Positions 3,311 to 62,953 of a stretch of 64,000 nucleotides of DNA are shown piece by piece. The first letter of the stretch is position 1; every line of letters begins with the position of its first letter. The notes under the pieces were generated by a model. The model worked only from the letters and a program-made list of their open reading frames with translations, made no database searches and had not been told where the DNA came from. The position numbers were made by a program, and so were the translations under genes. This DNA is from Amphiscolops sp. MND2022 (lineage: Eukaryota): assembly GCA_964187785.1 (NCBI GenBank), contig OZ076409.1:63676001-63740000 (forward strand), given 5' to 3'.

Positions 3311-3353
3311 AGTATCAGTTTAACTGATAATAACAAATTAAATCAGCTTACAA

Positions 3354-28847: not shown

Positions 28848-28951
<104 letters not shown>

Positions 28952-29583
28952 GTTACTTGGATGTCGTGGCTACATGTAAGACTTTCTTTTATGTTTCCAT
29001 CTTCTCCTTTCCTTTAGTCATGCTCTTCATTCACAGTACATGGTATGGAACCTGCCAGTGAAATATTCATGCACTCCTAACTGTTTCATTTTAATTCTTT
29101 TCTTTCCCCTAAAAAGGCATCGATTTCTTTATTTCATTTCATATTCAAAAAGTTATTAGTCGTATTTTACCAATCAATCCAGCGTCATATGATTGGTTAT
29201 CATCGTTGCTGCCGTCGAAAGGACCGCCGGTCTTTCAAGTTGATTGTTGACAGAAAATTAAGAAGAACAACACTTGAATTAGCAGGCAACTCCTTTGAAG
29301 GAGTAAGCAAACCCTCTATAAGTGGCAATTAAAATTTTGTTATAATAACAACAAAACAGGCTTTGGCGGTCTCAATGAAAGCAAGAAACCTAAATAAGGA
29401 GAGTTTGGGAGAATCTAGCGGGAATGGTACCTTACAATTACCCCCGCCAAATACGAAGGCTGACCTAAGGTCAACTGGACGGCATAACTTCATTCATCGC
29501 CCTAACAATTTCAAAACCAGTAGACTGCTTCTGAACTGCTCAAAATTGCACGAAAACTGTTTCTATCACGTTATTCACGAGAA

Positions 29584-30387: not shown

Positions 30388-31798
30388 GAGAAAAACTCCG
30401 CAATACGTTAATTATTTAGTTAACAATCTTCTCATGCACTTTAGTTCATTCATTTATTCTTATTCATCTTTACATGTAAATATGAAGTCTTAATAATGTG
30501 ACTCAAGGTCATTTTGACGGCATGAATAATTATATTTTGATTCAATCTTATGTAAATTAGTTGTTACACCACATTAATAATAATAATGTGAACTAGTACC
30601 AAAAGGTGCAAAACGCTGTACAAGCAGTTAATTTGATTGACGTTAATAATAACAATAGAAAGCAAGATGACTACTCAAGTGAAAGGAAACGCGTTCAACT
30701 GGTACGCTGCTGCCGTCTAGTTGACGCGTAGTCACTTCGCTTCTAACCAATCACGGCGCTACATTTAGTTATAGTTCAATGCCGTCATGTGGACGTTAGG
30801 TCCAATTAGTTAACGCATGTAGTATTAAATCTGTAGTTGCATGAAAATCACCGCTAACATGTACCTGTTATTAACCAGTATGTTGCTTCTATTTATAGGA
30901 CCTATGACGTGTAGTCATATGTCACCTCCGTTGCTATATTTAGAATTGTGATGTAATAGTTATTTTTAATAATGATGTCATTACTATTTTTACCCAATGA
31001 CACCCTAAATATTGAGTGTCATACTGTAGTTGCTATATATATGCAAATTTCCAGTAAGGGATTGATTCATTGTGATAACCTCAATACAAACCGTTCTGAT
31101 ATACACTTTTGATTCGACAATCTATTATTGAACAATACCTTCTTTTGATATGCCTTCAACTAGAAGACAAAAGGCGAAAGAGAAACGTTCAAGACAGTCT
31201 GACATAATGTCTGATATTGAAAATCTAGATGTGATGCTCGGAAATTACTCAAACAGTGAAATTAGGGACCAAAACACGGTAGACCAAATAGAAATTGACC
31301 CTGAGTCAAGTAGACGGCAACAAGGTTTCAGTCATGAAGAAGGTAACTATAGATCTCTTTTGAACACAAATTTGAGTGAGAATAGTGAAATTACAGTAGA
31401 AACTAGCAGAGCAATTAGTTCGGAAATTTCGTCGCAGATGTCAAGGAAATTGGAAGAAATGAAATCTGACTTAAATTCCCATATTATGGAGGTAATAAAC
31501 TCTGCTATTGATGAAAAAATACTACCGAGCATCGAAAATGTCATAGTAAATCACAGGGAGTGTAAAAACGCGAAATTGGACCTTCGGTCAGATGGACGGC
31601 ATCCGAGTAGAAACGTCCCTATGGACCATACTTTGGACCTTGGGTCATATGGACGGCATAAAATTAAATTTGGCCAGCAGGTCCAGGACTCAAGAGAGAA
31701 TTTTCCTAGACTAAGTAAGACAACAAATAACCTTTCAAATCATCAAATGGAATGTTCGGGAGATTCTGAACAGAGTGAAAATGATGAAGGTTATGACA
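30296..31798 (+). repeat. 3' LTR of A (second copy of the gag 5' end from 31150, reading into flank to 31854)
   Basis: Direct repeat of 15643-17145 followed by TSD CTATA. Confidence 0.97.
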
Positions 31799-44218: not shown

Positions 44219-46088
44219 TGTCGTAAGCACGAGAGTTTGTGCTTGTGAGTCCGTCTTTGGAACGGTCATTGGTTTGTTTGTTCTTAGAATTGTTCCTAGG
44301 TTCTAAGTTTTGCAGTACTTCAGAATATCCTTCCGGTCTCTCATCCGGAACGTTCCATCTCTCTCTGGTCAATTGTCCCGATCCGACCAAAACTGCATTT
44401 AGGATTTGAGGCAAAATTTGACTACTAATTGCCTCATTTATGGCCCTTTGAATCTGAACACTGACGCTACTCATCATTTCATCCATCTCTCGAGATATAC
44501 GTGAATTTAAGTCACTCGACAATCTATTGATCTCAACGCTTGAACACTCCCTGATCGAATTATGGCCTAATTCGGTATTTGGACTTGGTCCGTTATTTCT
44601 TGGATTCGGGAACCCATTTTCATTTTCATCTCCAAATTCATCTCCAAACAAGCTTTCTGGCCTACCGGCTTGATTACTATTCACACTTTCATTTCTCTCA
44701 TTTCTTTCAAAATGGTTTTCACCTAACATAATGTCCAGGTTTTCAATATCTGATAACATGTCAAGTCCTCTAGACTTTCTTGCTTTCTTTTGCTTTCTAG
44801 TGGTAGGCATCAAGACAGAACCGGGTTGAATAATTCAATTATTAAAACCGGAAAACTGACAAAAGTCGTTGTATTATTTCGATCTTTATCAAAGTGAGGG
44901 TATGAGATTAATGATCTTTTTACAAGAATATGGCTATATATACTCGTAAAAGGATGACACTCACATTCCATAAATTCTTTGATCAAGAAAAACATCACAT
45001 GACTATGGCTTCAACAGGTCATTTGACAAATGCTATTTCCACGTTAGGTAAGTTATTCAGCACTTCAAAGCGGATACTTTAGGGTGATGTCCCGATTAGG
45101 GAAATTCCTAGTTTCGGGGTAGCCCTTAGGAATTCAACATCAAAGGAATGCTATTTAAAAGTATACACAAGCAGCACCTTCAAGTGTCGTGTTTACAAAC
45201 ATCATCAACATCATCCTGTCAACAAATACCAATGTCTATTGAAGGAATGCAAAAGGCATCTCTTTGGAACGTACTTGTGACACGCGCTACCACGCGCCTA
45301 TTATTTAACGTAAGTGGGGACTAGATTAAATACTACATGATCAGTTCTGCTTAAAATACTACAGCACTATTAAAATAACACACTTTCTGGCAATGCCGAA
45401 AATGGACAAAATCCGGTTTACTAATACAGCACTATAATAAAAGAGGGCAAAAGCCTTATTCGGCTTTTGAGTGATCACTAAGTTTATTAGGCTCATTGCA
45501 CGGTGTTGGTACTTTCATTCGTTATTAAGGGTACATTTGCAGTAATACACGATTAGTACACTCAATTAACACACATATAAGCTATTCCAATGGAGTGGCC
45601 GGAACCGGCCGTTTGACTAAAAGGCACAATTATTGAGTCAATTGGCCATACTCGGCCACTACATAATCGGAGTGGTATTACTTATAGAAAAGGAGCATTG
45701 TGATTGGTTAAGGAGTTGAGCTCAAGTGACGTCTCCGGAATAGGAGTTTCGTTCACTTGAACTCGTTTCCTTTCTACTGCACAGCTACATTGTCACGTAT
45801 TACGTTTACAATAGCAACGCATCTTTCAATCTTCTGAAGTTACAAATACACTATTTGAATCTTCAAATGTAACTTTTAACAGACTAATTTTACATGTGCA
45901 AGTATATATATATATATCGGAGCTAACAACATCAACAAATATATTACGTATTGAATAACAAAACAGTATGAAAGTTCTAAGTTTGTAGGTTATTCCAATT
46001 CAATAAATGGGTAATGTTCCTGGTACAAATTCTTGTCCGGTTGCCGAGGTCGTCACACTTGTACCGTCACAGGCGGCAGCCTGCGACA
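44219..46088 (-). repeat. 3' LTR of B (1870 bp); gag 5' copy from 44810 reads into flank to 44097
   Basis: Minus strand TGTCGCAGGCTGCC...TTACGACA; about 15 substitutions and a 4-bp TA indel versus 58568-60433. Confidence 0.95.
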
Positions 46089-46785
46089 CTGCGGGAGCAA
46101 TAAAAAGAAAACAGCCAGCATTGAGTCCGTTCTCGTACGCTTCCTTCCTAAGCCTGGTGATGTACTCGGGCTCATCTCTGGGTGTGGATCGCTGCATGTA
46201 CCATTCCACCTTCTCGTTCTTGATCGAGTCTACTGAACGGCCGCAAACCATGCATCCCGTATAAGGCACCACGCTAACATTTTGATAAGGCACTGTGTTT
46301 TGCACATGGTAGGACGCGTAAAACCCGCTCATTGGTGGTTGGACTAAAGGGGTATCCTGACTTGGTCCTCTTTCGTGGTCCGGCGGCGACATCGGGGACT
46401 CTAGAATTGGTAAGATTGTATTGCACAGTTCGATGCGTGACTTTTCCATCCTTTTAGGAGGGGCATAGCACCTTTCTAAGTCGAAGTACTTGTGATCCAT
46501 TTTTGGCGTCTTCTCAGCACTTACACCTGATGTGCTTGGTCCAGTCACTGACGCATCTTCTTCAGGTATCTCCGATGCCATTATCCTTCCCCCAATGAGC
46601 ATAGGGCTAGATGTTACTTCTCTTTCTATCTGCGCTATCAGTTGTTCTGTATCGGTGGAACAATCCGTCTCCCAGTCTGACTCTTCGCTCTCACTACTCG
46701 ATATGTAGATTACCGATTTCTCAGAGCCGTCTGAGTCGAATTCTTCTAAGTCGAATAACTTCCTTGCGAGGTTGTATTTACTCAT
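46000..46785 (-). CDS. Sense accessory ORF of B (261 aa), ends 89 bp inside the 3' LTR
   Basis: Intact; homologous to 29584-30387. Confidence 0.88.
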   Translation of the reverse strand: MSKYNLARKLFDLEEFDSDGSEKSVIYISSSESEESDWETDCSTDTEQLIAQIEREVTSSPMLIGGRIMASEIPEEDASVTGPSTSGVSAEKTPKMDHKYFDLERCYAPPKRMEKSRIELCNTILPILESPMSPPDHERGPSQDTPLVQPPMSGFYASYHVQNTVPYQNVSVVPYTGCMVCGRSVDSIKNEKVEWYMQRSTPRDEPEYITRLRKEAYENGLNAGCFLFIAPAVSQAAACDGTSVTTSATGQEFVPGTLPIY

Positions 46786-47703
46786 GATGACTTTCTTCGC
46801 TATTTTGAAGCTTGTGGATGCAACTGTATCGTGATGAAGTTTTAGGATAGAATGAATTTGTCAAATCCAAAATTTAGTCGAGTAAGGTGTTTTCCCGAAG
46901 TTTCCAATTTGGCGGTTAGACCTTCGGTTAATCGTCCTGATCTGTCATAAACTTTCCAGAATGGAATTCCTCAGCTTGTCGGCTCCCTTTGATAACATGA
47001 TGTTTACCCCTCATCAGTGTCATCACTAGAAGAGGTGTGAATGACTCTCAGCTTATGAATATCAACTACACCCGTCTCAAGTGGGTAATTAACGGGTCGC
47101 TTGCAAGCAATTAACGGCGCTTGTCGGATAAAACTCACTGAAATGGCTTCAGCCAATCAAATTTGAGCTTCGATAAAATTGGAAAATTGAATAATAAAGA
47201 TGGCGTAAAATAATAATTTTGAATAACTAAAATGACGAAAATAATAAATCTAAATAATCCAAGATGGCGAAAATTCTAACTAAGGGAAACTAGGGTATCT
47301 GGACGTAATGGCAAAACGAAGTAGGGCAAGCGGCCGTAACCGGCCTCTAACTGAATAAGCTGTAACAACTAACGCTCTTTGTACATTTCGCTGGCAGACT
47401 CCATGTACATTTTAAATATGTAAATAATCAAACAATATTAGTCTGGTAAATCTCTTCAGCCACGAACTCCAACTTTCCAATTCTTTTATTCATTTTTAAT
47501 TCCATTCCAATTCTATTTATATATCAATTGTACCCCTTACTGGGATCCTCCCGACTGGTATTCATCTTCCCTTTGTCTCTAACTCTGCTGTCGATCCCCT
47601 CTGTGCAGCACTAGGGCCCTTAACTTCAGTCCATCCACGGCCATTTCCTTCAGCTTCTTTCGCCCTACGAGAGCATTTATTGCACGAATATCATCACGAC
47701 AAC

Positions 47704-50700
47704 ATGTCTTCCAATCCAGGTTGGTTTGATTTTCTCTTTCTTTCAAACAAGCTTAGCTTGATCAAGGCTAAACATTGTTCACATGACGCTTCCTGTTTCC
47801 ATCAACTAGACGCGTGAAAGCACGCTTCATTCAATTTTCAAGACACTTCCGGAAGATTTCCAACGCGGTAAAATGGACACTTTTCAAGGAAGCATACCGC
47901 TAAACTTTATCTCTTTTCGTTTAGATAATCAGACTTCTGAGATTGAAAACGTACCCAACCCTTCTGGACTGCCGCAAACAATTTCCAATGAAGGTACAGT
48001 TCCGAGTGTGGCGGATATCGCCAAGTCTGCGATTTCTCCCCAAAGTGTCGAAAGTGAGGTGGACGTGAATGCCTATGCAGAAGCTAAAGTACAAGAGATG
48101 GAGGTCGAGCAGAGTCAAATGCAACAACGATCACCTTCCAGTGATCTCAATTTGATGACGACCAACCCCGAGGCTTCCACTAGCACCTATGTTCCCCAGA
48201 GTTTAGTCCCAGTTCGGTCCAGTACCCCAATACCGGTAGAGACTGCTGGAATATCCCAAGCCAGCTTGCACACATTAGAAGCAGGTCTAACAGTTGTAAA
48301 CAACCCTGGGTCCCAATTACCTGAGCTTCTTCCTGCCACTGAAGTGGGGACCGTTGTTCCGCCAGTTAGGAAGACCTTGGACGATGAGGATGGAGAATCT
48401 TCTGTCTATGAAGTTCCTATGTTGCCCACCCAGGAACACAAAGTCCGGTTCTTGACCGACTTGAGTGAGGCTGAGAAAACAACCGGAGAGGCGAGCAGCA
48501 CTGAATGTCCTTCACTCTATGGGGATATTCCCGGGATGTCCGAATCTGGAGGAGAGACCAGTGAATGCCCTGACACTACCGTCCTTAGACAGCACCAGAC
48601 CGACCCACAGGCGTCCACTTCTCAAGGCTTTGACATCCAACATCCTGAACTCTCTGGAAGGGCGCGAGCCATACTGAAGACTTATTTCGATGAGACGCAT
48701 GCTTTTCGGTTCCCGCCAGGACAAACAGCAGTTGCCTTCACAGAGTCTCAGGTATATCACTTGTTACGCGTCTTAACTGACGAAACGCTTCGGATGTCAT
48801 ATTCTACCATGGAAAGAATGATTCTGGATGCAGTCCGGGGTAGTCCTACAGTCGCCCCATCACGCACTGACCATTTCAAATCAAGGACCAGAGCGCAGAC
48901 CCCTTACAGGGAACCTGATAGCGACTCCAGCGACGCCGAGACCGGAGACTTGCCGACTACGGATTCTGAGGGACATGACACCATAGACCGGGGTACACTT
49001 GGCGACTCTTCCTCATTTGGAGAAAGCGACAGTGCTGGCGAAATGGCCTTGATTTCGGCTTCTTTTAAAACTTCAGCCATAATTACAGACGTCCCAATTG
49101 TGTCACCTACAGAGCAGCTAGGAGTCATACAGACTGGTAGTCAAGAAACTGACCGAAGCAGTCAGGATATCACTTTATCTGAGGTGAGAGAACAGTCACT
49201 CCGATCTAGGCCCAAGTCAATGAGTAAGAAGGCCCCGAAGACTAAGAGACCACCTCAACGTGGAGTTCCAATGCGCGAGGAGTTCTTCGCAAAAATTGGT
49301 TGGACCCGGTCGTTCATCTCCGGGCCAGCGGACCCGATCCACAACCCCTTCATGGTCTGGTGCCACATTTGCAAAAAGAACTTCTCCATTAGAAGTAAGG
49401 GGACAATGGAGATACTCAGGCACCACAGGACCGAGAAGCACCTTAGACGGGACCAGAGATGGAGGTACGAGCATCTGAAAAGTACCGATCCAGTTACACT
49501 CAAGACCCAACACTGAGTCCGAGGCAGAAATGGGAAAATCTTGAGCAAGATAGAACTGGCCAAGGAGCTCCCCAAGTTTATCCATGTGGATTTAGTGGAT
49601 ATCGGAGAACGTTTTCCTTTCTACGAGGACTTCATTCGAGGTAGGACTACTCCCTTGGTTACTCCCGAGTCCCGAGCAAGAACTCAGCTAAGCATGGTAG
49701 CTGATTTCATCCAGAGCTATGGCGACATCACCGTCCTCCGGAGCATGTGGGCCAAGGTCAGTTCCGTTACCGACCATCAGGCTTCCCTTTGCGACTTCGA
49801 TTGGGGAGAAGAGAGGATGACTGTAAGTATTATTTGCTTTCCCTTCTCACAGGACCTTCCCCTTTCTAGGTTGTTATCTTTTGGCTTGTGTCCCTTTTAG
49901 GCAATATTCCAACATTTCTTCAACTGTGCCATGAGTGACGTTGCTGACCAGATTTCCACCCTGCAATGCTTTGCCTTGGAATTTGAAGACCAGGGACCCA
50001 ACCGATTCATGTCCGTGAGGTTCTGGAAGGGTCAATATCTTTGCAAAGTCATTGCTTGTCGCAGCAGGCTACCTACCACTGACCTCACCGGAGAGCTAGG
50101 TTCCATGGCGCGACTCTTGTCTGCAATCTCGACAAAGGCGGACATAGTGGCCTGTTCTGGGTGTCCGGCCGATCTAATCCGGACCATAGACGAGCTCCCA
50201 ACTTCGGCGCGGGCTGTACAGAGCTGCTTCAGGTTCAACCAGCTCAACCTGTCCAAGTTGATGCACAAGAAGAACTACAGTGTCTTCGGCCACATAGACT
50301 TCTTCTCAGTGCTACGCGGCTTAGTCATTTCCCTGGGTGGGTTGACCGATGAGGACTGGATACTACGTAGTCCCGAACTGGCCAAAGTAAGTGGGTGCTC
50401 GTTTCATTTTGTAGCGCTAACTCGTACTCTTAAGGGTTTCTAGACGGGTTATTACAGTGGCTCCGCTTTTCCTTTAGGCTATTTCCAAGAGCGATCTAGA
50501 CATGTCTACACTGCCTGCTCTGTGCCAAGAACTCATGGACGAGTGGAAATCCGTGGTCTCTTTCCTCACCGAGCACTCTCCCAAACAACTAGGCCAGGGA
50601 GTTAAAACTAGAGTAAGTGTCTCAACTCAAGTTTCGTCTTTTCCCATTAGACGCGGAGATCTTGTAGTTACACCGTAAACCTTTTGTTGCAGGTTCAGAG

Positions 50701-51998
50701 CTTTGAATGGTCGCTCATTTGTGATGAGTTCTTTCCAGTGAAGTTGGAATTCTTCTATCACCTTATTAGTGATTGTTAGTTTGTTTTGATAGCCTGGGGT
50801 TCTTCTTTTGGACCATTACACCTAAGTATCTTGTGTTTTAGACAACTCTAGCTTCTCTTCCAACTTACACAAGAGACGTGATTCTTGCTTCTATCTTTGT
50901 GGGGAAGTTGCCCGTTACGTCTACAGGCTGTGCTTCCGGTGTTATGCTCCTGATACCATCCCTCTCGAAAATTCATGGTTCTTGCTTCTAAACTTCCAAA
51001 CCAGTGAGGGGGCATTTCTCCCAGTTGATGAGTTCCTCACTCGGCTGAACATGAAGAACAAAGTTGCCAAGGCCAGTAGGCAAAAATCGGAAGGCATCCA
51101 TTCTGGAAAGAAATCTGACAGGGCCGCAGTGCAGAAGACCGCAGAAACCATCAAGAATGATTTCGTCCGAGATTGCCAAAATTTCATCCAGTTCCTGATA
51201 GGGGGTGTTCTCCACCAGGCCGGACTCTGCTCTAATCTTGTTCGTGGCCTTGCTGCTTTTGACCCTTATATAATGGTAAAAAGGCCCACTGAAGTAGCGC
51301 TACGTCACTTCGACTTATTATATCGGACCTTTCAGCTCAGGTCTTGGGTCAGTCTAGCAAATGAGTCTGCCTGTCGGGACGAGTACGTGGAGTTATTGGA
51401 CCACCTCAAGGCTTCTTCTCTTCCTTCATTCGATGTTAGCCAGGGATCACCGGATCTTATAGATTTTCTTGTCAATCTTGACTTTATGCAGGAGCATAGT
51501 CGTCTGTTATATCTATTCAAGTTGAGTTGTTTATGCATTACGTCTGAAAGTCCTCAATACCCAACAGTACGTATTGGAACTGCCAACACTACAAGTCATC
51601 AGAACAGACTCACAGACGTGGTTTTACCCGTCCAGAGCTATCTGTCAGGGGTTCCGGACTCCACTGCCTTCTGTACCAGTGATTCTAGTTTGGCTAAGTT
51701 TTCTTTGCTTTCTGCCTCCTTCAGTCAAACTGTTTCATCCGCCTCATACGACCCCTGGACTTCCGTTGACGAGTTTGGTAGGAATCGAATTTACAAGTCC
51801 CTTCTTACGTCATATCGTTCTGCCCTTTCTGGATTAGGTGGAGTGGGCCTCGATGAGACAACGTCTTCCAGTGTTGGTGATATGCCTGCAGTAGTCCCGC
51901 CCGGTGACCGTAAACGGAAGCGCATGGAGAGGAGCAGATCCCGCTCGAGAGCCTCATCCGTCGCCAAAGAGTCTCCTGCCGGTTGTTCTAATTACTAA
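47704..51998 (+). pseudogene. Antisense spliced accessory gene of B (about 1257 aa, one in-frame TGA at 49514-49516). Predicted exons 47704-47719, 47925-49822, 49901-50386, 50478-50612, 50693-50774, 50842-51998
   Basis: All junctions GT-AG and in frame; peptides align with A across junctions (ERMT/AIF vs ERLS/VLF; TLPALCQEL vs TLPTLCQEL; D-Y-NSSF vs D-Y-TTSF); finger WCHICKKNFSIRSKGTMEILRHHRTEKH. First mini-exon less certain (alternative ATG at 47873). Confidence 0.82.
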
Positions 51999-52236
51999 TT
52001 GTACATATGTATTTATGTACACTATGAACTTGTAAACTTTGTTGATTTTCTGTTTCATTGCCATATTTATATTTCCATTCTGTTTCCTCATTGTTTGTAT
52101 CTTTCACCCCCGTATTTATTTTGAAAGGGGTCCTTCATTCGTCCCATTATTTATCCAAAAAATGCCAAAGGGACTGAAAAAAAAACGGAAAAGAGATAGT
52201 AAGAAAGAACTCCCATTTTCGGGAAGAATTCAATCT

Positions 52237-55200
52237 TTAGTATCTGAAGTCTTCTGAGTAGTTTGGATTAGGGTTAGGCCTGAGATTATATTTCCCTCCT
52301 CTAGAGCTCAGACTTTCATTTCTAGCGTCGCTTTCAGATATTTCGGGCACGATAATATCATCCCCCCTTTTTGGAGAGGTTTGTGCATCGTTTTCATCCA
52401 TCGAATTTCTTTCTGAAAAAATTTCGTCATTTTCCGGCCCAGCTGCCGTATTCGGCAAAGAATTTTCTTGGTTTTTTGGGAAAACGGCCGGATTCGGCCA
52501 ATCAGATTTGGTATTTTCTGTCACTGCGGTAGCTTTATTTCTTTTAGTGACGTCATCATTCAATCGTTCATCTCGGCTGTGCGACGCACGATCGGTAAGA
52601 TTTGATTCGTCACTCGTGATTACATAATCCACTTCATTCTCGCTTGCGTCACTTGCATTCGCTTCTGCCGTACTCGGCTGTTCGTCATTCGTCAAGCTGG
52701 CCGGAATAGGCTCGCTGCCTCGTGTATCTAGCTGTTCGCCAAAGTTTGTTTCCCACGTTATTACATACAAGTCGTCTTGCGGAATGATTATTTCGTTATC
52801 CGGCTGTAGACGCTGTTCTCGGAAATTGTCTTCAAGTGGCTGATTTGGAACAAACTTTTTGAGACGAATTCGATGCAAGATCTGCGTTTTATTTGTATTA
52901 AGCCTGCGGACAATGTAATTCTCATTAGGTAAGGTCTTCTGGACTATAAATGGTCCAACCCAGCGATAATCCCTGAATGGAATTTTTGATCCTTGATGAT
53001 CCGCCTTCGGTTGTAATACAAAACAGTAATCGCCCTCTTTGAGTGGGGCGGCTTTTGCTTTTCGGTCGTAATACTCCTTATATTTGATATATGACTGCAT
53101 GATGTTCTGCTTTGTTTTGTCAATAAGGAGTTTGGTCCGGTTCTGGATTTCTTCTGCGAATTCAGTAGTCGGATGGATTGGTTCATTTGGATTCATTCCA
53201 AGTTTGTGATCCAAGATGTTGTATGGGATTCTCCCATGGAACACTCTTGTGGGTTCGCATCCGATACTGGTATGATAACTAGTGTTATGATTGAGAACTG
53301 CTAAAGGCAAATATTTATGCCATTGTCGGCGATATTCCCCACATGCCATTTTCAGGTTCGTTTTCAATGAGGCATGTGTTCGCTCTAATTTTCCGATAGT
53401 TTGCGGGTGTTTCGTCGTTGCACATTTTAGGGTAATGCCTAAAATCTGTGTAATTTCCGCAATGATCGTGGAAGTAAAGGCAGTTCCTTTGTCCGTAATT
53501 AGCGTCGTCGGTAGGTAAGAATGTTTGGTCATAATATCTATGATTGCTTTAGCTACATTGATCGCTGATGCGTCCGTAAGAGGATAAGCAAACAAGTATC
53601 GAGAGAAGACATCAATTGCGGTTAAAATATTTTCGTATCCTCCACTTGGGGGAAGATTCGGCAATAAGTCGATTTGCATGGCGTCTTCGGGTCCAAGGTC
53701 CCATTCCGGCAAGTTAAGTAGTTCAGGCGTGATTGTTGCGTTTGGGACTCGTTTGTATTTTGCACATTGTTCACACCCTTCTACCCACGTTTTGACATAT
53801 TTTGCCATGTTAGGGTAATAATACCTTTGTCTGGTTTCCTGCAACATTTTTGAAATTCCGGGATGTCTATGCGCTGTCCCGTGAAGGGAGTGGAGCAATT
53901 CCCGAAGTAGGTGTTGCGGGAGCAAAATTTGATGGTATTTAACATTCCCTGTTTCATCAAAATATTGCCTTGTCAGGATTTCGTCCTTTAGTACAATTCG
54001 TTCCAGATTATTTGCATAATGTCTATATCGGGCATCCTGTTGCAGTATGTTTTCTGAATAGTCTTCATGAAGGAGCTTTGCCTTCAATTGTTGCAATACT
54101 GCATCTTTGGACTGCTCGATGATTATCTGGTTTGTTTTCTTTAATCGGACTTGAATGTCTGGTTGTTGTTTGACCAGGTTGGTTGACAGAGTTTCTATGG
54201 TAACAGTGGGTTCATCAATCATTGGATTTTTCCTGATTGCTTCTTTTCTTGCCCAATACTGTTCCTCTGTCTCGTCGTCATCATTCGTATAGAATATTTG
54301 TTCTTCCTGTGATACCCCTGCAGATTGAACATTGATTTCAATTGGTAGAGTTTGTACGTCCTCACGGATCTTCATGACTAATTTGTCCTTTGGATCTGCC
54401 TCTAATCGGGACAAATAGTCAGCTGCTGTGTTCTGTGCCCCCGGGATATGCGCTATGACAAAATTGAACTGAATCACATAATCGCATGCATTCCACAGGG
54501 CTGGGGGTATTATTTTCGTTTGAAAGAATCTTGTTACTGCTTTGTTATCGGTTAGGATTATGACCGGTTTGGGCGCTCCCCAGAAAATATGCCCAAATTC
54601 TTTGAATGCGAAATAAATCGCAAGAAATTCTTTTGCATAAATTGACATCTTTATCTGGGCTGGGGTGAAGGTTTTTGAACCATAAGCGACCGGTGCGTAT
54701 GATTTGCGGATTGACGTGAATTTCTGACTCGGGTCATCTTCAATGAGTATTGCGTATCCTGCAGCTCCGAAACTTGCATCTGTCATGAGTGCAATCTGCT
54801 TGTTAGGAATGGGTTGTTGTAAGGCTAAGTCGCAACATTTGTCCAGAGCTCGGTTGATTTCCTCAAATTGCTGTACTAATTCTCTTGACACTAGGACTTT
54901 TTCGTCACTTTTCAGCATCTTGTAGAATGGAGCAAGGCGTTCGGATAGTCTTGGGACATAATTCCTGTAGTAGTTCAAGAACCCCAAGTAGCGCTGCAAA
55001 GCCTTTTTCGACTTTGGGAATTTGGTCTTTTCCAGGAAGTTTTGCACGTTCTGCTTCTGGGGTTTGACGCCTTGCGGGGTAATAGTCCGTCCGAGGAAAT
55101 CAATTTCTTTTGCACCAAAGTGGCATTTGTGCATTGTCAACTTAAGGCCTGCTTCCTGAATGCATTTGAAGGTTGCTTTCAGGTTCATTATGAGGTGGTT

Positions 55201-57444
55201 AACATCATTGGCTGCGATGCCGATATCGTCCTCATACTGGGCGCACTGATCCGCTTTAATGACCTTGTCGAGGTATTCCCTCATGAAACTCGAGAATGCG
55301 GATAGTGACCGACTGAGGCTTTGTGCCAAACGTCTGTAGGCAAATGTGCGACTGGCAAAATTGAAAGCTAACATTTCGATTGAGCGTTGGTCAGCCATTG
55401 GTAGGCAGTGGTATGCCTGCGAACAGTCTAATTTACAGAACAGTTTTTTGCCTGCCAAGTGTTGGGCGGCATCAACTAGGGTGCTAACAGGGTGATTATT
55501 GTTTATATAATCATCCGAGATGAGGTTGTTGATTTTTCGCAAGTCAACCAAGAGTCGTAGCTTCCCATTTGGTTTCTTTTGGGCGAATATTGGGCTTGCA
55601 TACTTTGAGAACGGTAGGGTGGTAATGATGCCATATTTGTGTAACATGGCTAATTCGACTAAGATGTCTTCCTTCAAGTTGATAGGAGCCGGAAGACTTT
55701 GACTATAGGCTGGGGAATCGTCTTTTGGTGTCAGTTTCACCTTGAAGTCCTCGTTCATGCCAATATCAAATCGGTGTCGTGCAAAGATGTCATGGAATTC
55801 CACTAACAATTCCTCTATTTTCTCCTTCTCTTCAGGAGTAAGGGTGGAATCTTTCCAGTCAAAGTTTTCTAAGAATTTTGCACGTGATTCTGCGTCTGTG
55901 GTGGGGTCGAGTGTCTCCAGGTCCTGTAAGGCCTGTAACTCACGTAGGATCCGTTTTTGTATGGGTGTGTGTTCCTCAGGATTTCCAGGGTTTTCTGGAG
56001 TTGGGAACCAGTAATTTTCGGAGTTTTGTGGATTTCTATTGGTTTTGATGAGACTGCTGACATAATGGGCCGCTTGCTCCTGGTCATTCTGCAAAAGGTG
56101 CCAGGTTGATGCCGGGTCTACCGGTTTGACATACTTCATTTGTTCTGGCGTCATGACAGAGAAATTGGCAATATGTAGTCCCTTTTTGAGTTTATAAGGG
56201 TGGTCTGTGAAATTGTTCACTGGAATCAATATATTGCCGTCATTCAGAGTGACCGAGGCTGGGCAAAATGTAATGTCGCCTTCTTCATGTAGAAGGTCGC
56301 TCGGTTGCAAAATTCCAGTGACAGTATTCTCAGGGTACAGTAGGGAATTGGTCCTGATTAGGACTCTATCGTTTGGCGGAATGGTTATCTCAATGGGATT
56401 GAGAATTGGTTCTAAGACATTTGAGTATTTTTGGTCGGCTGTTTTTAGTTGCATTGAAAAGAACGGGAAGTTCAGGATTCCTTGTCTCATGTCCAGAACT
56501 GTATGGTTTCTCTGCAGGAACATCAGTCCAATGATCGGTCCTGTCAAATGTTCCATGACTATGAAAATCTCATGAAACTCAATATCACCAACTTCAAATT
56601 TGAGTTCTATGGTACTTTTAGGGGTTTCCAGTTGACCATTAGCGACCATTATTTGGAAATTCGGAGGTGCACCTTCTCGGATAACAGATTGTGGAGATAA
56701 AAGGCGGATTTTCCGGAGGTCCATTTCGGGTATTGCACTGGACAGCGCTCCAGTGTCTATTAGTCCATCAATGGTCAATTCCCCAAAGTCCATTGGGAAA
56801 TAAAGCATGCGTTTTTTGCATTTGAGGTTGATGTTGGTTGACAGGGGTATACAGTCTGGTTCACCATCTCTGGTGATGAGTACATTTTGGAATTGTTTTT
56901 CATCTAGTAATGATTGTGGCATGATTTCACCACTATTTTCAGTATTCTCGGTCCCCAGGGGGTTTGGGAACACCGGATGGCTTGTGCCATCATTCATTTG
57001 CCAGGTTTCAATCAATGCTCTAGTTTTCTTGTTGTGGGTGATTGGAGGATTTTCATGGGCTGATTTATTGTAGAGTTCGATATCATCAATGACGTATTGG
57101 AATTGTAGCAGATCTTGGTTGTAGAGTTCCGTGCCCCAATAGGGATCTCGTCCATAATCGGGGTCTATGTAGGTAGGGTTGTAATCGTCTACCAAGGGAA
57201 TGGGCCTGAATCGGCTATTGAAAGCAGATGTGTAATCAGGATCCCATACAGGAATTGGTTTTTGGAACAGATGGGTATTATTGTAAGTAATAATGGTAGC
57301 TTTTTCCATCTGCTGCTGCCAGACAACAGAAGGATAGCCCATCAATTGTTGGTTGTATTGGTGGAAAGTTTGCGTTGGAGGGTCCGATCTGATGTATTGT
57401 CGGACAGAGACTAGTTGGTCATAGTGGAGTCGTGGCGAAGCTAG
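52237..57444 (-). CDS. pol: Pol of B (PR, dUTPase-like, RT, RNase H, IN), expressed by -1 frameshift; RT motif reads YEDD
   Basis: Frame open from the slippery site to the stop at 52237; LIDTGA, TDAS, HHCC/DDE and GPF motifs; strongly similar to A Pol. Confidence 0.93.
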   Translation of the reverse strand, partial: LASPRLHYDQLVSVRQYIRSDPPTQTFHQYNQQLMGYPSVVWQQQMEKATIITYNNTHLFQKPIPVWDPDYTSAFNSRFRPIPLVDDYNPTYIDPDYGRDPYWGTELYNQDLLQFQYVIDDIELYNKSAHENPPITHNKKTRALIETWQMNDGTSHPVFPNPLGTENTENSGEIMPQSLLDEKQFQNVLITRDGEPDCIPLSTNINLKCKKRMLYFPMDFGELTIDGLIDTGALSSAIPEMDLRKIRLLSPQSVIREGAPPNFQIMVANGQLETPKSTIELKFEVGDIEFHEIFIVMEHLTGPIIGLMFLQRNHTVLDMRQGILNFPFFSMQLKTADQKYSNVLEPILNPIEITIPPNDRVLIRTNSLLYPENTVTGILQPSDLLHEEGDITFCPASVTLNDGNILIPVNNFTDHPYKLKKGLHIANFSVMTPEQMKYVKPVDPASTWHLLQNDQEQAAHYVSSLIKTNRNPQNSENYWFPTPENPGNPEEHTPIQKRILRELQALQDLETLDPTTDAESRAKFLENFDWKDSTLTPEEKEKIEELLVEFHDIFARHRFDIGMNEDFKVKLTPKDDSPAYSQSLPAPINLKEDILVELAMLHKYGIITTLPFSKYASPIFAQKKPNGKLRLLVDLRKINNLISDDYINNNHPVSTLVDAAQHLAGKKLFCKLDCSQAYHCLPMADQRSIEMLAFNFASRTFAYRRLAQSLSRSLSAFSSFMREYLDKVIKADQCAQYEDDIGIAANDVNHLIMNLKATFKCIQEAGLKLTMHKCHFGAKEIDFLGRTITPQGVKPQKQNVQNFLEKTKFPKSKKALQRYLGFLNYYRNYVPRLSERLAPFYKMLKSDEKVLVSRELVQQFEEINRALDKCCDLALQQPIPNKQIALMTDASFGAAGYAILIEDDPSQKFTSIRKSYAPVAYGSKTFTPAQIKMSIYAKEFLAIYFAFKEFGHIFWGAPKPVIILTDNKAVTRFFQTKIIPPALWNACDYVIQFNFVIAHIPGAQNTAADYLSRLEADPKDKLVMKIREDVQTLPIEINVQSAGVSQEEQIFYTNDDDETEEQYWARKEAIRKNPMIDEPTVTIETLSTNLVKQQPDIQVRLKKTNQIIIEQSKDAVLQQLKAKLLHEDYSENILQQDARYRHYANNLERIVLKDEILTRQYFDETGNVKYHQILLPQHLLRELLHSLHGTAHRHPGISKMLQETRQRYYYPNMAKYVKTWVEGCEQCAKYKRVPNATITPELLNLPEWDLGPEDAMQIDLLPNLPPSGGYENILTAIDVFSRYLFAYPLTDASAINVAKAIIDIMTKHSYLPTTLITDKGTAFTSTIIAEITQILGITLKCATTKHPQTIGKLERTHASLKTNLKMACGEYRRQWHKYLPLAVLNHNTSYHTSIGCEPTRVFHGRIPYNILDHKLGMNPNEPIHPTTEFAEEIQNRTKLLIDKTKQNIMQSYIKYKEYYDRKAKAAPLKEGDYCFVLQPKADHQGSKIPFRDYRWVGPFIVQKTLPNENYIVRRLNTNKTQILHRIRLKKFVPNQPLEDNFREQRLQPDNEIIIPQDDLYVITWETNFGEQLDTRGSEPIPASLTNDEQPSTAEANASDASENEVDYVITSDESNLTDRASHSRDERLNDDVTKRNKATAVTENTKSDWPNPAVFPKNQENSLPNTAAGPENDEIFSERNSMDENDAQTSPKRGDDIIVPEISESDARNESLSSRGGKYNLRPNPNPNYSEDFRY

Positions 57445-59159
57445 TTTTTTGACTCATCATTGGAAGATGAGGCATGTGAGTTGGAAGATGTTGATTTGTT
57501 TTGTGGTTTCTGCGCCTTTGAGTTGGGTTTGTCGTCATTAGCGTCATCTGGTCTGGTGCGTTTGGGTTTGAGATGCGCACCAGCACCTTGCCAGCATCTT
57601 TCTTCCGGATGGTTCTTTTTACCACAAGTGCCACACTCCGGATACGTCTTTTTCTGAGTTTGTTTGCCTTGTTGGGCATCTTTTTCCTTTTTCTTCTTCA
57701 ATTTTTCACAGTCTTTGACCATATGGCCCTTCTCCTTGCAATAGTTGCAGGTGATGTCCGACATTTGCCCAGTAGTTAGAGGAGTCTTGGATTTTGTTGT
57801 CGGGGAGGTCATTGTGGCCATTGGTAGGTCGTCTGATTCTTCAAGGGCATTTAATTCTAACTCTCTCTCTAAATGAGCAACTATTTCGTCATAAGAGCCG
57901 TTTTCGAGTCTGGCCATGTTTACGGACCGCTTCAGTTTTGGTGGCAGTTTTGCGTAGAGCAAACTGTCAATCATTTTCTGTGCGTGATCTCCGAATGCTT
58001 TTTCTGCCCCTTGATTTAATTCTTCAAGGAAATCTGGCAGTTTCATCGTGTTGGGATCGAAGACTAGACGGTGCCATTTATGTTTGGCAGTTGCCTGTGA
58101 TTCAGGTTTGACGTATTTCCGTCTGAATATTACCAATACGTCTTCTAAAGTCTGTCTATTGCTCGAGCTGATGTTCCGGAAGGTTTGAAGAGCATTCTTC
58201 CTCAGCAGTGAGTGGAAGTGATTGATTTTCATCTGTTCCGTCATTTCCGGTTGCATCTTGATCATCGTGTGGAACAGGTCCTCGAACAGCTCGAATTTTT
58301 CACTCTTGCCATCAAAAGTCATTGTATTTGAATTGACTGGGCGTATAGTGAGTTGTTGGGCTGTCGGCCTATTCTGCATCGTTGTCAAGACATCTGCTAG
58401 TCGAGTAATAGGGTCAGTTTGAGTAGCCGGAGCATTTCTCTCTTGCGCTGGGATCGTCGTGTCAAGGTTAATATCCTCATAGGACCTGTCGAGATGGTTT
58501 CTGGATGAGATTCGTCCCGTGAGAAACTCAGGAACTTCGATTGGAGATTCGTTTTCTCCTGTCACCATGTCGTAAGCACGAGAGTTTGTGCTTGTGAGTC
58601 CGTCTTTGGAACGGTCATTGGTTTGTTTGTTCTTAGAATTGTTCCTAGGTTCTAAGTTTTGCAGTACTTCAGAATATCCTTCCGGTCTATCAGCCGGAAC
58701 GTTCCATCTCTCTCTGGTCAATTGTCCCGATCCAACCAAAACTGCATTTTGGATTTGAGGCAAAATTTGACTACTAATTGCCTCATTTATGGCCCTTTGA
58801 ATCTGAACACTGACGCTATTCATCATTTCATCCATCTCTCGAGATATACGTGAATTTAACTCACTCGACAATCTATTGATCTCAACGCTTGAACACTCCC
58901 TGATCGAATTATGGCCTAATTCGGTATTTGGACTTGGTCCGTTATTTCTTGGATTCGGGAACCCATTTTCATTTTCATCTCCAAATTCATCTCCAAACAA
59001 GCTTTCTGGCCTACCGGCTTGATTACTATTCACACTTTCGTTTCTCTCATTTCTTTCAAAATGGTTTTCACCTAACATAATGTCCAGGTTTTCAATATCT
59101 GATAACATGTCAAGTCCTCTAGACTTTCTTCCTTTCTTTTGATTTCTAGTGGTAGGCAT
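57441..59159 (-). CDS. gag: Gag of B (first 197 codons inside the LTR)
   Basis: Intact ORF from the ATG at 59159; capsid region nearly identical to A; knuckles CNYCKEKGHMVKDC and CGTCGKKNHPEERC. Confidence 0.95.
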   Translation of the reverse strand: MPTTRNQKKGRKSRGLDMLSDIENLDIMLGENHFERNERNESVNSNQAGRPESLFGDEFGDENENGFPNPRNNGPSPNTELGHNSIRECSSVEINRLSSELNSRISREMDEMMNSVSVQIQRAINEAISSQILPQIQNAVLVGSGQLTRERWNVPADRPEGYSEVLQNLEPRNNSKNKQTNDRSKDGLTSTNSRAYDMVTGENESPIEVPEFLTGRISSRNHLDRSYEDINLDTTIPAQERNAPATQTDPITRLADVLTTMQNRPTAQQLTIRPVNSNTMTFDGKSEKFELFEDLFHTMIKMQPEMTEQMKINHFHSLLRKNALQTFRNISSSNRQTLEDVLVIFRRKYVKPESQATAKHKWHRLVFDPNTMKLPDFLEELNQGAEKAFGDHAQKMIDSLLYAKLPPKLKRSVNMARLENGSYDEIVAHLERELELNALEESDDLPMATMTSPTTKSKTPLTTGQMSDITCNYCKEKGHMVKDCEKLKKKKEKDAQQGKQTQKKTYPECGTCGKKNHPEERCWQGAGAHLKPKRTRPDDANDDKPNSKAQKPQNKSTSSNSHASSSNDESKN

Positions 59160-60433
59160 CAAGACAGAACCGGGTTGAATAATTCAATTATTAAAACCGG
59201 AAAACTGACAAAAGTCGTTGTATTAATTCGATCTTTATCAAAGTGAGGGTATGAGATTAATGATCTTTCTACAAGAATATGGCTATATATACTCGTAAAA
59301 GGATGACACTCACATTCCATAAATTCTTTGATCAAGAAAAACATCACATGACTATGGCTTTAACAGGTCATTTGACAAATGCTATTTCCACGTTAGGTAA
59401 GTTATTCAGCACTTCAAAGCGGATACTTTAGGGTGATGTCCCGATTAGGGAAATTCCTAGTTTCGGGGTAGCCCTTAGGAATTCAACATCAAAGGAATGC
59501 TATTTAAAAGTATACACAAGCAGCACCTTCAAGTGTCGTGTTTACAAACATCATCAACATCATCCTGTCAACAAATACCAATGTCTATTGAAGGAATGCA
59601 AAAGGCATCTCTTTGGAACGTACTTGTGACACGCGCTACCACGCGCCTATTATTTAACGTAAGTGGGGACTAGATTAAATACTACATGATCAGTTCTGCT
59701 TAAAATACTACAGCACTATTAAAATAACACACTTTCTGGCAATGCCGAAAATGGACAAAATCCGGTTTACTAATACAGCACTATAATAAAAGAGGGCAAA
59801 AGCCTTATTCGGCTTTTGAGTGATCACTAAGTTTATTAGGCTCATTGCACGGTGTTGGTACTTTCATTCGTTATTAAGGGTACATTTGCAGTAATACACG
59901 ATTAGTACACTCAATTAACACACATATAAGCTATTCCAATGGAGTGGCCGGAACCGGCCGTTTGACTAAAAGGCACAATTATTGAGTCAATTGGCCATAC
60001 TCGGCCACTACATAATCGGAGTGGTATTACTTATAGAAAAGGAGCAACGTGATTGGTTAAGGAGTTGAGCTCAAGTGACGTCTCCGGAATAGGAGTTTCG
60101 TTCACTTGAACTCGTTTCCTTTCTACTGCACAGCTACATTGTCACGTATTACGTTTACAATAGCAACGCATCTTTCAATCTTCTGAAGTTACAAATACAC
60201 TATTTGAATCTTCAAATGTAACTTTTAACAGACTAATTTTACATGTGCAAGTATATATATATCGGAGCTAACAACATCAACAAATATAATACGTATTGAA
60301 TAACAAAACAGTATGAAAGTTCTAAGTTTGTAGGTTATTCCAATTCAATAAATGGGTAATGTTCCTGGTACAAATTCTTGTCCGGTTGCCGAGGTCGTCA
60401 CACTTGTACCGTCACAGGCGGCAGCCTGCGACA
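58568..60433 (-). repeat. 5' LTR of B (1866 bp), also serving as 3' LTR of the adjacent partial copy
   Basis: Followed on the minus strand by PBS TGGTGACAGGAG (58567-58556) and preceded by the accessory ORF of the next copy. Confidence 0.95.
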
Positions 60434-61130
60434 CTGCGGGAGCAATAAAAAGAAAACAGCCAGCATTGAGTCCGTTCTCGTACGCTTCCTTCCTAAGCCT
60501 GGTGATGTACTCGGGCTCATCTCTGGGTGTGGATCGCTGCATGTACCATTCCACCTTCTCGTTCTTGATCGAGTCTACTGAACGGCCGCAAACCATGCAT
60601 CCCGTATAAGGCACCACGCTAACATTTTGATAAGGCACTGTGTTTTGCACATGGTAGGACGCGTAAAACCCGCTCATTGGTGGTTGGACTAAAGGGGTAT
60701 CCTGACTTGGTCCTCTTTCGTGGTCCGGCGGCGACATCGGGGACTCTAGAATTGGTAAGATTGTATTGCAAAGTTCGATGCGTGACTTTTCCATCCTTTT
60801 AGGAGGGGCATAGCACCTTTCTAAGTCGAAGTACTTGTGATCCATTTTTGGCGTCTTCTCAGCACTTACACCTGATGTGCTTGGTCCAGTCACTGACGCA
60901 TCTTCTTCAGGTATCTCCGATGTCATTATCCTTCCCCCAATGAGCATAGGGCTAGATGTTACTTCTCTTTCTATCTGCGCTATCAGTTGTTCTGTATCGG
61001 TGGAACAATCCGTCTCCCAGTCTGACTCTTCGCTCTCACTACTCGATATGTAGATTACCGATTTCTCAGAGCCGTCTGAGTCAAATTCTTCTAAGTCGAA
61101 TAACTTCCTTGCGAGGTTGTATTTACTCAT
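60345..61130 (-). CDS. Second copy of the B sense accessory ORF (261 aa)
   Basis: One amino-acid difference (A/T) from 46000-46785. Confidence 0.88.
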   Translation of the reverse strand: MSKYNLARKLFDLEEFDSDGSEKSVIYISSSESEESDWETDCSTDTEQLIAQIEREVTSSPMLIGGRIMTSEIPEEDASVTGPSTSGVSAEKTPKMDHKYFDLERCYAPPKRMEKSRIELCNTILPILESPMSPPDHERGPSQDTPLVQPPMSGFYASYHVQNTVPYQNVSVVPYTGCMVCGRSVDSIKNEKVEWYMQRSTPRDEPEYITRLRKEAYENGLNAGCFLFIAPAVSQAAACDGTSVTTSATGQEFVPGTLPIY

Positions 61131-62953
61131 GATGACTTTCTTCGCTATTTTGAAGCTTGTGGATGCAACTGTATCGTGATGAAGTTTTAGGATAGAATGA
61201 ATTTGTCAAATCCAAAATTTAGTCGAGTAAGGTGTTTTCCCGAAGTTTCCAATTTGGCGGTTAGACCTTCGCTTAATCGTCCTGATCTGTCATAAACTTT
61301 TCAGAATGGAATTCCTCAGCTTGTCGGCTCCCTTTGATAACATGATGTTTACCCCTCATCAGTGTCATCACTAGAAGAGGTGTGAATGACTCTCAGCTTA
61401 TGAATATCAACTACACCCGTCTCAAGTGGGTAATTAACGGGTCGCTTGCAAGCAATTAACGGCGCTTGTCGGATAAAACTCACTGAAATGGCTTCAGCCA
61501 ATCAAATTTGAGCTTCGATGAATTTGGAAAATTGAATAATAAAGATGGCGTAAAATAATAATTTTGAATAACTAAAATGGCGAAAATAATAAATCTAAAT
61601 AATCCAAGATGGCGAAAATTCTAACTAAGGGAAACTAGGGTATCTGGACGTAATGGCAAAACGAAGTAGGGCAAACGGCCGTAACCGGCCTCTAACTGAA
61701 TAAGCTGTAACAACTAACGCTCTTTGTACATTTCGCTGGCAGACTCCATGTACATTTTAAATATGTAAATAATCAAACAATATTAGTCTGGTAAATCTCT
61801 TCAGCCACGAACTCCAACTTTCCAATTCTTTTATTCATTTTTAATTCCATTCGAATTCTATTTATATATCAATTGTACCCCTTACTGGGATCCTCCCGAC
61901 TGGTATTCATCTTCCCTTTGTCTCTAACTCTGCTGTCGATCCCCTCTCTGCAGCACTAGGGCCCTTAACTTCAGTCCATCCACGGCCATTTCCTTCAGCT
62001 TCTTTCGCCCTATGAGAGCATTTATTGCACGAATATCATCACGACAACATGTCTTCCAATCCAGGTTGGTTTGATTTTCTCTTTCTTTCAAACAAGCTTA
62101 GCTTGATCAAGGCTAAACATTGTTCACATGACGCTTCCTGTTTCCATCAACTAGACGCGTGAAAGCACGCTTCATTCAATTTTCAAGACACTTCCGGAAG
62201 ATTTCCAACGCGGTAAAATGGACACTTTTCAAGGAAGCATACCGCTAAACTTTATCTCTTTTCGTTTAGATAATCAGACTTCTGAGATTGAAAACGTACC
62301 CAACCCTTCTGGACTGCCGCAAACAATTTCCAATGAAGGTACAGTTCCGAGTGTGGCGGATATCGCCAAGTCTGCGATTTCTCCCCAAAGTGTCGAAAGT
62401 GAGGTGGACGTGAATGCCTATGCAGAAGCTAAAGTACAAGAGATGGAGGTCGAGCAGAGTCAAATGCAACAACGATCACCTTCCAGTGATATCAATTTGA
62501 TGACGACCAACCCCGAGGCTTCCACTAGCACCTATGTTCCCCAGAGTTTAGTCCCAGTTCGGTCCAGTACCCCAATACCGGTAGAGACTGCTGGAATATC
62601 CCAAGCCAGCTTGCACACATTAGAAGCAGGTCTAACAGTTGTAAACAACCCTGGGTCCCAATTACCTGAGCTTCTTCCTGCCACTGAAGTGGGGACCGTT
62701 GTTCCGCCAGTTAGGAAGACCTTGGACGATGAGGATGGAGAATCTTCTGTCTATGAAGTTCCTATGTTGCCCACCCAGGAACACAAAGTCCGGTTCTTGA
62801 CCGACTTGAGTGAGGCTGAGAAAACAACCGGAGAGGCGAGCAGCGCTGAATGTCCTTCACTCTATGGGGATATTCCCGGGATGTCCGAATCTGGAGGAGA
62901 GACCAGTGAATGCCCTGACACTACCGTCCTTAGACAGCACCAGACCGACCCAC
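60434..62953 (-). mobile_element. Truncated tandem copy of the B internal 3' region
   Basis: Near-identical to 46089-48608 (offset 14345); breaks off within the antisense gene. Confidence 0.95.

Follow-up and report, generated by a model that had tools for sequence, protein, structure and literature searches.

Plant VANDAL elements, which are Mutator-like DNA transposons, encode an accessory protein, VANC, that is related to MAIN (PMC13547354). According to the available text of PMC5735166, VANC recognizes short family-specific motifs, 8-9-base words in noncoding DNA that lie in the terminal, intergenic, and intronic regions of the element, often as tandem arrays, and differ between related families; both binding and demethylation are proven. 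Here we analyze a window of 64 kb (the whole stretch of DNA examined, 64,000 nucleotides of Amphiscolops sp. MND2022, assembly GCA_964187785.1, contig OZ076409.1, positions 63,676,001 to 63,740,000), which holds two Ty3/gypsy long terminal repeat (LTR) retrotransposons, elements A and B, and a solo LTR of a B-type family. Both elements have a gene antisense to gag-pol for a protein with a predicted BED-type zinc finger, and each is rich in its own spaced palindrome, GAC-N5-GTC in A and GCC-N6-GGC in B. A sequence-only reading of the window had proposed that protein and motif form a VANC-like self-recognition system.

As in VANDAL elements, the accessory protein is encoded by the element, and the motifs are short and family-specific, lie in terminal, intergenic, and intronic regions and differ between related families; the tandem arrays have a counterpart in our lineage F, whereas the sites of A and B are dispersed and partly coding (PMC5735166). 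In contrast to the VANC words (PMC5735166), the sites here are spaced inverted half-sites, many of them within gag-pol, and binding and demethylation would be predictions. The host element is a Ty3/gypsy retrotransposon rather than a Mutator-like DNA transposon (PMC13547354), and no Pfam match to a VANC- or MAIN-related domain was found in it. As far as the DNA shows, these elements appear to work like VANC without being members of that system, belonging to another element class and carrying another protein.

Conserved antisense open reading frames (ORFs) between pol and the 3′ LTR are described for the plant gypsy elements Retand, Grande, and RIRE2, in Grande with an internal promoter of its own; they have a transposase-named domain, tandem repeats in the ORF region, and a proposed regulatory role, the function of such ORFs in LTR retrotransposons being called unknown (PMC11963269; PMC7264820). 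Their domain is TRP28 (PF04195), to which nothing here has a Pfam match, the available parts of these papers describe no family-specific target motif, and the gene here has introns and a BED-type finger. A second likeness is to the hAT transposase Hermes, which has an N-terminal BED-type finger and in which two BED domains bind inverted subterminal repeats cooperatively, all base contacts coming from the loop and helix that precede the first His (PMC10368747). Structure models suggest that the RNase H-like three-strand sheet and the helical C-terminal region may be shared as well (PMC10368747). Unlike hAT transposases and domesticated BED factors (ZBED2), the protein here shows no visible catalytic motifs of the genome's hATs, and its gene lies inside an LTR element lacking terminal inverted repeats, with targets spread through the retroelement. 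LTR elements of bdelloid rotifers are also animal elements and likewise carry extra captured genes, which several element classes have in common, but their ORF3s are env-like, esterase, or exonuclease genes, and the available text mentions no DNA-binding protein or self motif (PMC5408684). A full-text literature search, with most subscription journals outside its range, brought up no LTR element with an antisense gene derived from a hAT or with a self motif, and the available portions of PMC13547354 and PMC5408684 describe no such LTR self-recognition system.

Results

Motif counts in the window

We scanned the window for GCC-N6-GGC, counting 12 alternative spacer lengths for comparison, and obtained expected counts from dinucleotide shuffles (200 each) or, in coding regions, from synonymous-codon shuffles. 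GCC-N6-GGC occurs 26 times, each of the other 12 spacer lengths 2-9 times. Eleven copies lie in the B unit (44219-58567) against 1.46 expected (maximum 6 in 200 shuffles), three in the B LTR (0.07 expected), and four in the solo LTR (0.12 expected), while the A unit has two (1.49 expected). GAC-N5-GTC was found 37 times in A against 2.7 expected and three times in B against 2.8.

All sites listed by the sequence-only reading are present, eight of eight in B and three of three in the solo LTR, as is the near match in the solo LTR (ACC-N6-GGC); the positions given for them were each those of the base preceding GCC and are corrected in Table 1. The scan added three sites in B coding sequence, three in the B 5′ LTR, one in a second B unit, and one in the solo LTR. 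The reading had placed the B motif in compartments equivalent to those of the A motif; the same three compartments do hold the A motif, but this is also abundant in the pol core. Its caveat that GCC-N6-GGC occurs outside B was fair, the motif being in mild excess outside the elements; the sites at 12873 and 13412 exist. Dispersed repeats at 12040-14000 and 36700-37000, which recur beside hAT loci, contain these two sites.

Motif class by lineage

Finger queries against the 1.07-Gb genome gave 6,100-7,500 first-look candidates each, of which 150 were scored, so that these figures are not copy numbers. B's Ty3/gypsy clade has thousands of candidate copies, and antisense exon 1 is open over ~590-850 codons in many genomic copies. 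We compared 88 finger-centered stretches of 8-10 kb, picked by hand for diversity and long frames and not at random; 87 of them, with A and B of the window, make up a set of 89 elements.

Motif class tracked lineage in 81 of the 89: 38 elements carry GAC-N5-GTC, 30 GCC-N6-GGC, and 13 TATGC-N17/18-GCATA, and the remaining eight, all of lineage E, have no clear motif. The median numbers of GAC-N5-GTC/GCC-N6-GGC sites per stretch were 23/1 in A (n = 12), 21/0 in A2-A3 (n = 8), 23/1 in C (n = 5), 15/4 in D2 (n = 13), 4/11 in D1 (n = 10), 2/10 in B (n = 20), 1/0 in E (n = 8), and 2/1 in F (n = 13); the 88th stretch, L130 of lineage G, is GAC-type (16 GAC, 0 GCC). Enrichment of GCC-N6-GGC in B-family copies, the check that the proposal invited, held for every one of the 20 B-type elements, with 6-11 sites in ~9 kb.

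Lineage F combines the most divergent finger, with S for R just before the first His, and the most divergent motif. ATGC-N17/18-GCAT has a median of 14 copies in F elements (range 3-25) and 0-1 in other lineages, and it lies in the unique 3′ (U3) region of the LTR, in the intergenic region, and, arrayed in tandem, in the stretch that separates exon 2 from the last exon. Subfamilies also differ in a third half-site: GAC-N5-GTC-N5-GACGG averages 12.4 per A element and 0-1 in 11 other subgroups, and B and D1 have GGC-N5-G[AC]C in common. An unrelated old gypsy element in the window, the only control without an antisense gene, had no strong palindrome; no sister clade without the gene was found, no systematic search for one having been made.

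GTC-N5-GAC and TGTC-N8-GTC were considered as E motifs but are weak (8 versus ~2), and we did not accept them as a motif class. Separately, L041 and L060 (~4700-5300, element orientation) have a 126-bp tandem repeat with TTGTC-N5-GAC in the E-type exon 1 region, and L130 (7347-7630) has GTC-N5-GAC-N5-GTC-N5-GAC in a ~54-bp tandem repeat of the gag-coding LTR part.

Selection on the sites and their position

Motif sites are selected inside coding sequence. Against synonymous shuffles, GAC-N5-GTC reaches 13 versus 2.1 in A pol, 15 versus 3.5 in C, 17 versus 3.7 in A3, and 11 versus 2.6 and 6 versus 2.7 in two D2 elements. GCC-N6-GGC reaches 4 versus 0.94 in the B integrase tail (p = 0.001), 2 versus 0.16 in the B pol core (p = 0.006), and 5 versus 0.8 in another B element. 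The gag-pol of F contains none of the F motif.

Across the elements the motifs concentrate in the LTR and around the candidate internal promoter, with the highest density at U3 and at that promoter. We aligned 14 B-type U3s (mean column conservation 0.61) and found the half-sites of the first site identical in 14 of 14, with flanks conserved at 0.48; the second site is intact in 10 of 14 and the third in 5 of 14. At the first site the fourth base is G in all 14, and its would-be pairing partner is C in four, T in four, and A in six; of the half-site changes at the second site, three break pairing and one preserves it. Base identity, not pairing, is thus what is conserved at these sites.

The antisense protein

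The protein (~1,270 residues from five predicted exons) is probably a derivative of a hAT transposase. Its finger is of C2H2 type, with the residues C, C, S, G, E, H, and H invariant in 31 of 31 rows, and is modeled with predicted local distance difference test (pLDDT) scores of 86-98. The link to BED-type fingers runs through a snail protein (phmmer E value 2.5e-10) whose cluster, P0255, includes a "BED-type domain-containing protein" and matches the N-terminal finger by hhalign (E value 3e-4); Pfam zf-BED itself was hit by only 1 of 50 rows (E value 0.85). The language-model neighbors of the N-terminal half are DUF4371 and the ZBED5- and ZBED1-RNase-like clusters (0.87-0.95), and all named neighbors of the protein are hAT-type families (0.90-0.95); the taxa of the nearest named relatives point to an invertebrate animal as host. 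For the last exon, 23 of 30 neighbors carry Dimer_Tnp_hAT, at a recognition value below the tool's bar, and its model matches Hermes weakly (Z score 5.5 over 148 residues, root-mean-square deviation 10.1, rank 7); no longer homologue of this exon was found beyond one family member.

The SD, TDNA, CxxH, TRW, and SER motifs of seven hATs of this genome had no counterpart in the antisense protein when compared by eye in an inferred register, which makes it probable that the protein is catalytically dead. No donor hAT was found in the genome through PF14291, with which the control was also blank, or through the snail finger. The finger classes P0084, P0154, P0227, P0197, P0242, and P0172 gave no close match in this genome with the queries used, and a metagenome scan yielded one 1.3-kb fragment.

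Purifying selection acts on the protein: five subfamily pairs that retain 63-89% amino-acid identity have diverged at 58-70% of their fourfold sites. By the NG86 method 14 of 15 pairs showed saturated synonymous divergence (dS); for the remaining pair the ratio of nonsynonymous to synonymous divergence (dN/dS) was 0.06.

Finger and motif

The middle of the finger was a sensible region for the sequence-only reading to choose, since the base contacts of Hermes are made there (PMC10368747), and the middles it quoted for A (NVSIYGQGARE) and B (NFSIRSKGTME) match the sequences. Among the 87 of 90 elements scored (three fingers were missed by the pattern) the middle does not act as a code, because NVSIYSKGARE goes with GCC in six elements and with GAC in three. 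In B, nine different middles accompany GCC. The predicted co-variation of motif and finger holds in one respect, a third finger lineage having a third motif, and fails in another, identical middles occurring with both GCC and GAC.

By register with Hermes the residue before the first His is a base-reading position (PMC10368747). Both E and R, the residues predicted to read bases, are unchanged across the GAC and GCC lineages, and R is replaced by S in F. This constancy would fit the common G-x-C half-site, with the spacing and the middle base set elsewhere in the protein. The second residue after the first His is K or R in 29 of 29 GCC-dominant elements and another residue in 37 of 39 GAC-dominant ones, L028 and L036 being the exceptions; one new element, L130, fits. 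As this residue emerged from a scan of ~190 columns and rests on two changes, we treat it as a lead only.

D1 and D2 form one clade by finger (98% support), yet their U3 motifs differ: in D1, eight of eight U3s have 3-5 GCC and no GAC sites, and in D2 all five with the LTR start found have 0-1 GCC and four GAC sites.

A recombinant element

L028 (775-8301, ~7.5 kb) is a non-autonomous element without gag-pol that has only the first antisense exons; its 1,547-bp LTRs are identical, indicating that it is young. The finger exons are of D1 (GCC) type (75% to L029), and the finger exon stays open, whereas the intergenic region, ORF3, and LTR are of D2 (GAC) type (67-78% to D2 members). The finger has a 100% match at 13 places. 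Its U3 contains two perfect GCCG-N4-CGGC sites, which are absent from five of five D2 U3s. New GCC sites in the company of D1 finger exons are as predicted for self-recognition by the N-terminal half of the protein, and an element without gag-pol and with a D2-type ORF3 points away from ORF3, Gag, or integrase as the reader of the sites.

Anatomy of the elements

Table 1. Features of elements A and B and of the solo LTR (window positions; each site is given by the first base of GCC; sites absent from the sequence-only reading are marked "added")
Feature	Positions	Strand	Remarks
Element B	44219..60433	-	TG...CA LTRs, primer-binding site
Element B 3′ LTR (TG...CA)	44219..46088	-	U3 sites 45453, 45598, 45645
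Element B ORF3	46000..46785	-	sense to gag-pol; acidic, CxxC; enters 3′ LTR
Element B intergenic region, antisense gene/ORF3 (divergent)	46861..47872	.	candidate internal promoter; site 47333
Element B antisense gene	47873..51998	+	five predicted exons (GT-AG borders, frame, homology with A exons), 1,268 codons
BED-type C2H2 zinc finger of B antisense protein	49361..49441	+	
Element B integrase tail, low-complexity	52240..52779	-	four sites 52445, 52487, 52667, 52700
Element B pol	52237..57453	-	protease-RT-RNase H-integrase (RT, reverse transcriptase); sites 53319, 57204 (added)
Element B gag (CCHC knuckle)	57441..59159	-	starts inside LTR, reads across primer-binding site; site 57666 (added)
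Element B 5′ LTR	58568..60433	-	followed by primer-binding site starting TGGT; sites 59802, 59947, 59994 (added)
Partial second B unit	60434..62953	-	shares 5′ LTR; ORF3, intergenic site 61678 (added), antisense gene start
Solo LTR, B-type family	9929..11841	+	target-site duplication CCCAC; sites 10354, 10411, 10624, 11482 (last added); near match 10567
Element A	15643..31798	+	LTRs 15643-17145, 30296-31798; target-site duplication CTATA; 37 GAC-N5-GTC per unit
Element A antisense gene	23701..28071	-	homologous to B antisense gene

Both elements have TG...CA LTRs, a primer-binding site, and the Ty3/gypsy pol order of protease, RT, RNase H, and integrase (Pfam matches of B pol: RVT_1 3e-19, RT_RNaseH 4e-15, rve 1.5e-10), and between pol and the 3′ LTR they carry the antisense gene and a small diverging sense ORF3 (Table 1). 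ORF3 is present in all lineages mapped (A, A2/A3, B, C, D1, D2, E, F, and G) and has no Pfam match. The predicted antisense exons of B are 47873-49822, 49901-50386, 50478-50612, 50693-50768, and 50842-51998. The window copies of the gene are damaged, in B by a premature stop in exon 1 and in A by a stop and a 98-bp tandem duplication in exon 1. In A the third half-site GACGG extends 16 of the 37 GAC-N5-GTC sites. The B LTR pair is identical at 1851 of 1866 positions, and the motif sites of the 5′ LTR have a CCAAT-like box on one side and a TATA-like run on the other; the solo LTR is 67-68% identical to the B LTR. Target-site duplications are 5 bp for A and the solo LTR, that of B being obscured by a local duplication.

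The gag frame starts ~200 codons inside the LTR and crosses the LTR end and the primer-binding site (16497-18293 in A, 57441-59159 in B), as seen in every lineage mapped; each LTR, the solo LTR included, therefore carries a gag N-terminus. No polypurine tract precedes the 3′ LTR of A or B (30265-30295 and 46089-46120), where pyrimidine-rich ORF3 coding sequence is found instead. The ORF3 coding sequence enters the 3′ LTR, the first 25 bases of which are a conserved inverted repeat.

The partial second B unit is a 99.2% repeat of 44219-48608. A 3.4-kb stretch lies on both sides of B (40778-44218, and 62957-64000 continued in L077:1-2395; 99-99.8% identity), and its second copy runs on into an apparent empty insertion site; this flanking repeat is either a local duplication or an assembly artefact. 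Finger matches lie one element length apart (~14.7 and ~15.2 kb) at C7:62496745-62526291 and C13:16095972-16126500, which suggests head-to-tail element arrays. The old gypsy element at 3121-9034 is broken and has 180-bp LTRs, with a large inverted repeat at 5761-6125. Elsewhere in the genome, the E-type antisense genes of L039, L058, and L059 lie in 9-kb contexts that are almost the same, and neither ORF3 nor an LTR or integrase was detected near them; they are possibly carried by another element.

Discussion

The motifs, their lineage specificity, the selection of sites within coding sequence, their position at promoter regions, and the purifying selection on the protein are established. From these we infer a scheme that comprises the probable hAT origin of the protein, its loss of catalysis, its expression, its binding, and the sign of its effect. 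An ancestor of this Ty3/gypsy clade would have taken up a hAT-type transposase gene, introns included, which came to lie antisense between pol and the 3′ LTR. The captured protein would have lost its cutting residues and kept the BED-type finger and multimerization regions. Made from the internal promoter, it would bind in dimeric or multimeric form to spaced inverted half-sites throughout the copies of its lineage (GAC-N5-GTC, GCC-N6-GGC, or TATGC-N17/18-GCATA, to which subfamilies often add a third half-site of their own) and keep these copies transcriptionally open by activation or anti-silencing, as VANC does in plants. Keeping copies open would be the likeliest effect because the sites are densest at U3 and the internal promoter. 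The geometry of paired inverted repeats, which is that of Hermes BED binding (PMC10368747), counts in favor of binding. Judged on sequence, binding of the antisense protein to the motifs of its own lineage is the likely case; that it both binds them and keeps the element expressed is evenly balanced between right and wrong. We are likewise of two minds about the broader view, in which the clade domesticated a DNA-transposon enzyme and the protein and its multi-part target co-diversified into mutually private address codes. The idea of self-recognition is strengthened but unproven.

Several observations weigh against this scheme. E elements have an intact finger and no significant motif (best log10 p -2.9), and the A three-part motif favors one strand (13:3 within the window and 115:20 across 11 related loci). 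The 26 kb outside the elements hold 5 GCC-N6-GGC against 1.16 expected (maximum 4), a mild excess. A finger-middle code is contradicted, too, by NISIYSKGARE (GAC in three elements, GCC in one) and NVSIFSKGARE (GAC in six, GCC in one). No component tree, including an RT tree of elements of this genome only, unites B and D1 to the exclusion of A and D2, so that every tree requires two or more changes to account for the GAC/GCC split; copies within a group being related, the independent evidence amounts to about three motif changes. D1 gag-pol is mixed (GAC 6 versus 1.8 and 8 versus 2.1, GCC 3 versus 0.3-0.4), and D2 keeps a median of four GCC sites per stretch, with GCC sites in the integrase tail; on both counts D looks like a lineage in or after a motif switch. 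L028 is a single case, aligns poorly at the new sites (41-59%), and retains four GAC sites in its U3. For hAT homology, neither Pfam and PDB-sequence searches nor Foldseek and hhalign comparisons, profiles of seven genome hATs included, reached significance. The observed/expected CpG ratio of 0.79-1.07 gives no hint of heavy CpG methylation to counter, which makes anti-silencing by VANC-type demethylation the weaker half of the claim.

The sites could instead serve another product of the element (integrase, Gag, or ORF3) or have an RNA or cDNA role in packaging, reverse transcription, or avoidance of self-integration, which we regard as unlikely. The strand bias of the third half-site in A, the sites along gag-pol, palindromes that could fold as small hairpins, the missing polypurine tract with its hint of unusual replication, and an ORF3 that is retained as consistently as the antisense gene would all suit such a role; yet the first and second B U3 sites keep their bases and not their pairing, the B third half-site lies on both strands (43:31), and the new GCC sites of L028 track its finger exons in an element with D2-type ORF3 and LTR and no gag-pol. 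Non-catalytic transposase products are known as repressors of the P-element type, and a dead transposase might in the same way be a copy-number brake that coats the promoters and body of its own family. For this self-repression, which seems to us quite unlikely, speak the A-type sites throughout pol, superfluous for an activator, and the precedent of the antisense retroviral regulator HBZ (PMC11963269). The gene-bearing families are, however, large and young, with many identical copies per query, and L028 spread without gag-pol while retaining its finger exon.

LTRs often gather binding sites of host transcription factors, and the lineages might have specialized on different factors while the antisense protein acts otherwise. 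Part of the A motif resembles a nuclear-receptor inverted repeat, GGTCA-N3-TGAC, and the GCC-N6-GGC excess outside B would also fit; but conservation does not extend to the T that nuclear receptors require, no animal factor is known to us for GCC-N6-GGC, and three unrelated cores with subfamily third half-sites would need a new factor each time, which leaves this explanation improbable. That the motifs are neutral repeats, spread by local duplication and shared ancestry without any reader, is very improbable and largely refuted: A- and B-type sites are scattered, with unrelated flanks that are less conserved than the sites themselves, and in conserved pol they are built from synonymous choices. 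It draws on the tandem arrays in which F and some E and G sites lie, on the non-independence of copies, and on two of six control stretches that also have strong spaced palindromes (log10 p -10.5 and -11).

Returning to self-recognition by the antisense protein, the antisense ORF here is accompanied in each lineage by a DNA target that can be predicted and is thus open to a short binding experiment. If the scheme is true, sequence-specific self-licensing would not be limited to plant VANDAL elements but could be built from a captured transposase, and a VANC-like self-recognition would have arisen independently in an LTR element, probably one of an animal. The clade would then provide a ready-made range of DNA-binding specificities, and the antisense ORFs of LTR elements a role that can be put to the test; self-recognition might also help to explain the success of this clade, each query of the 1.07-Gb genome having raised >6,000 finger-like candidates.

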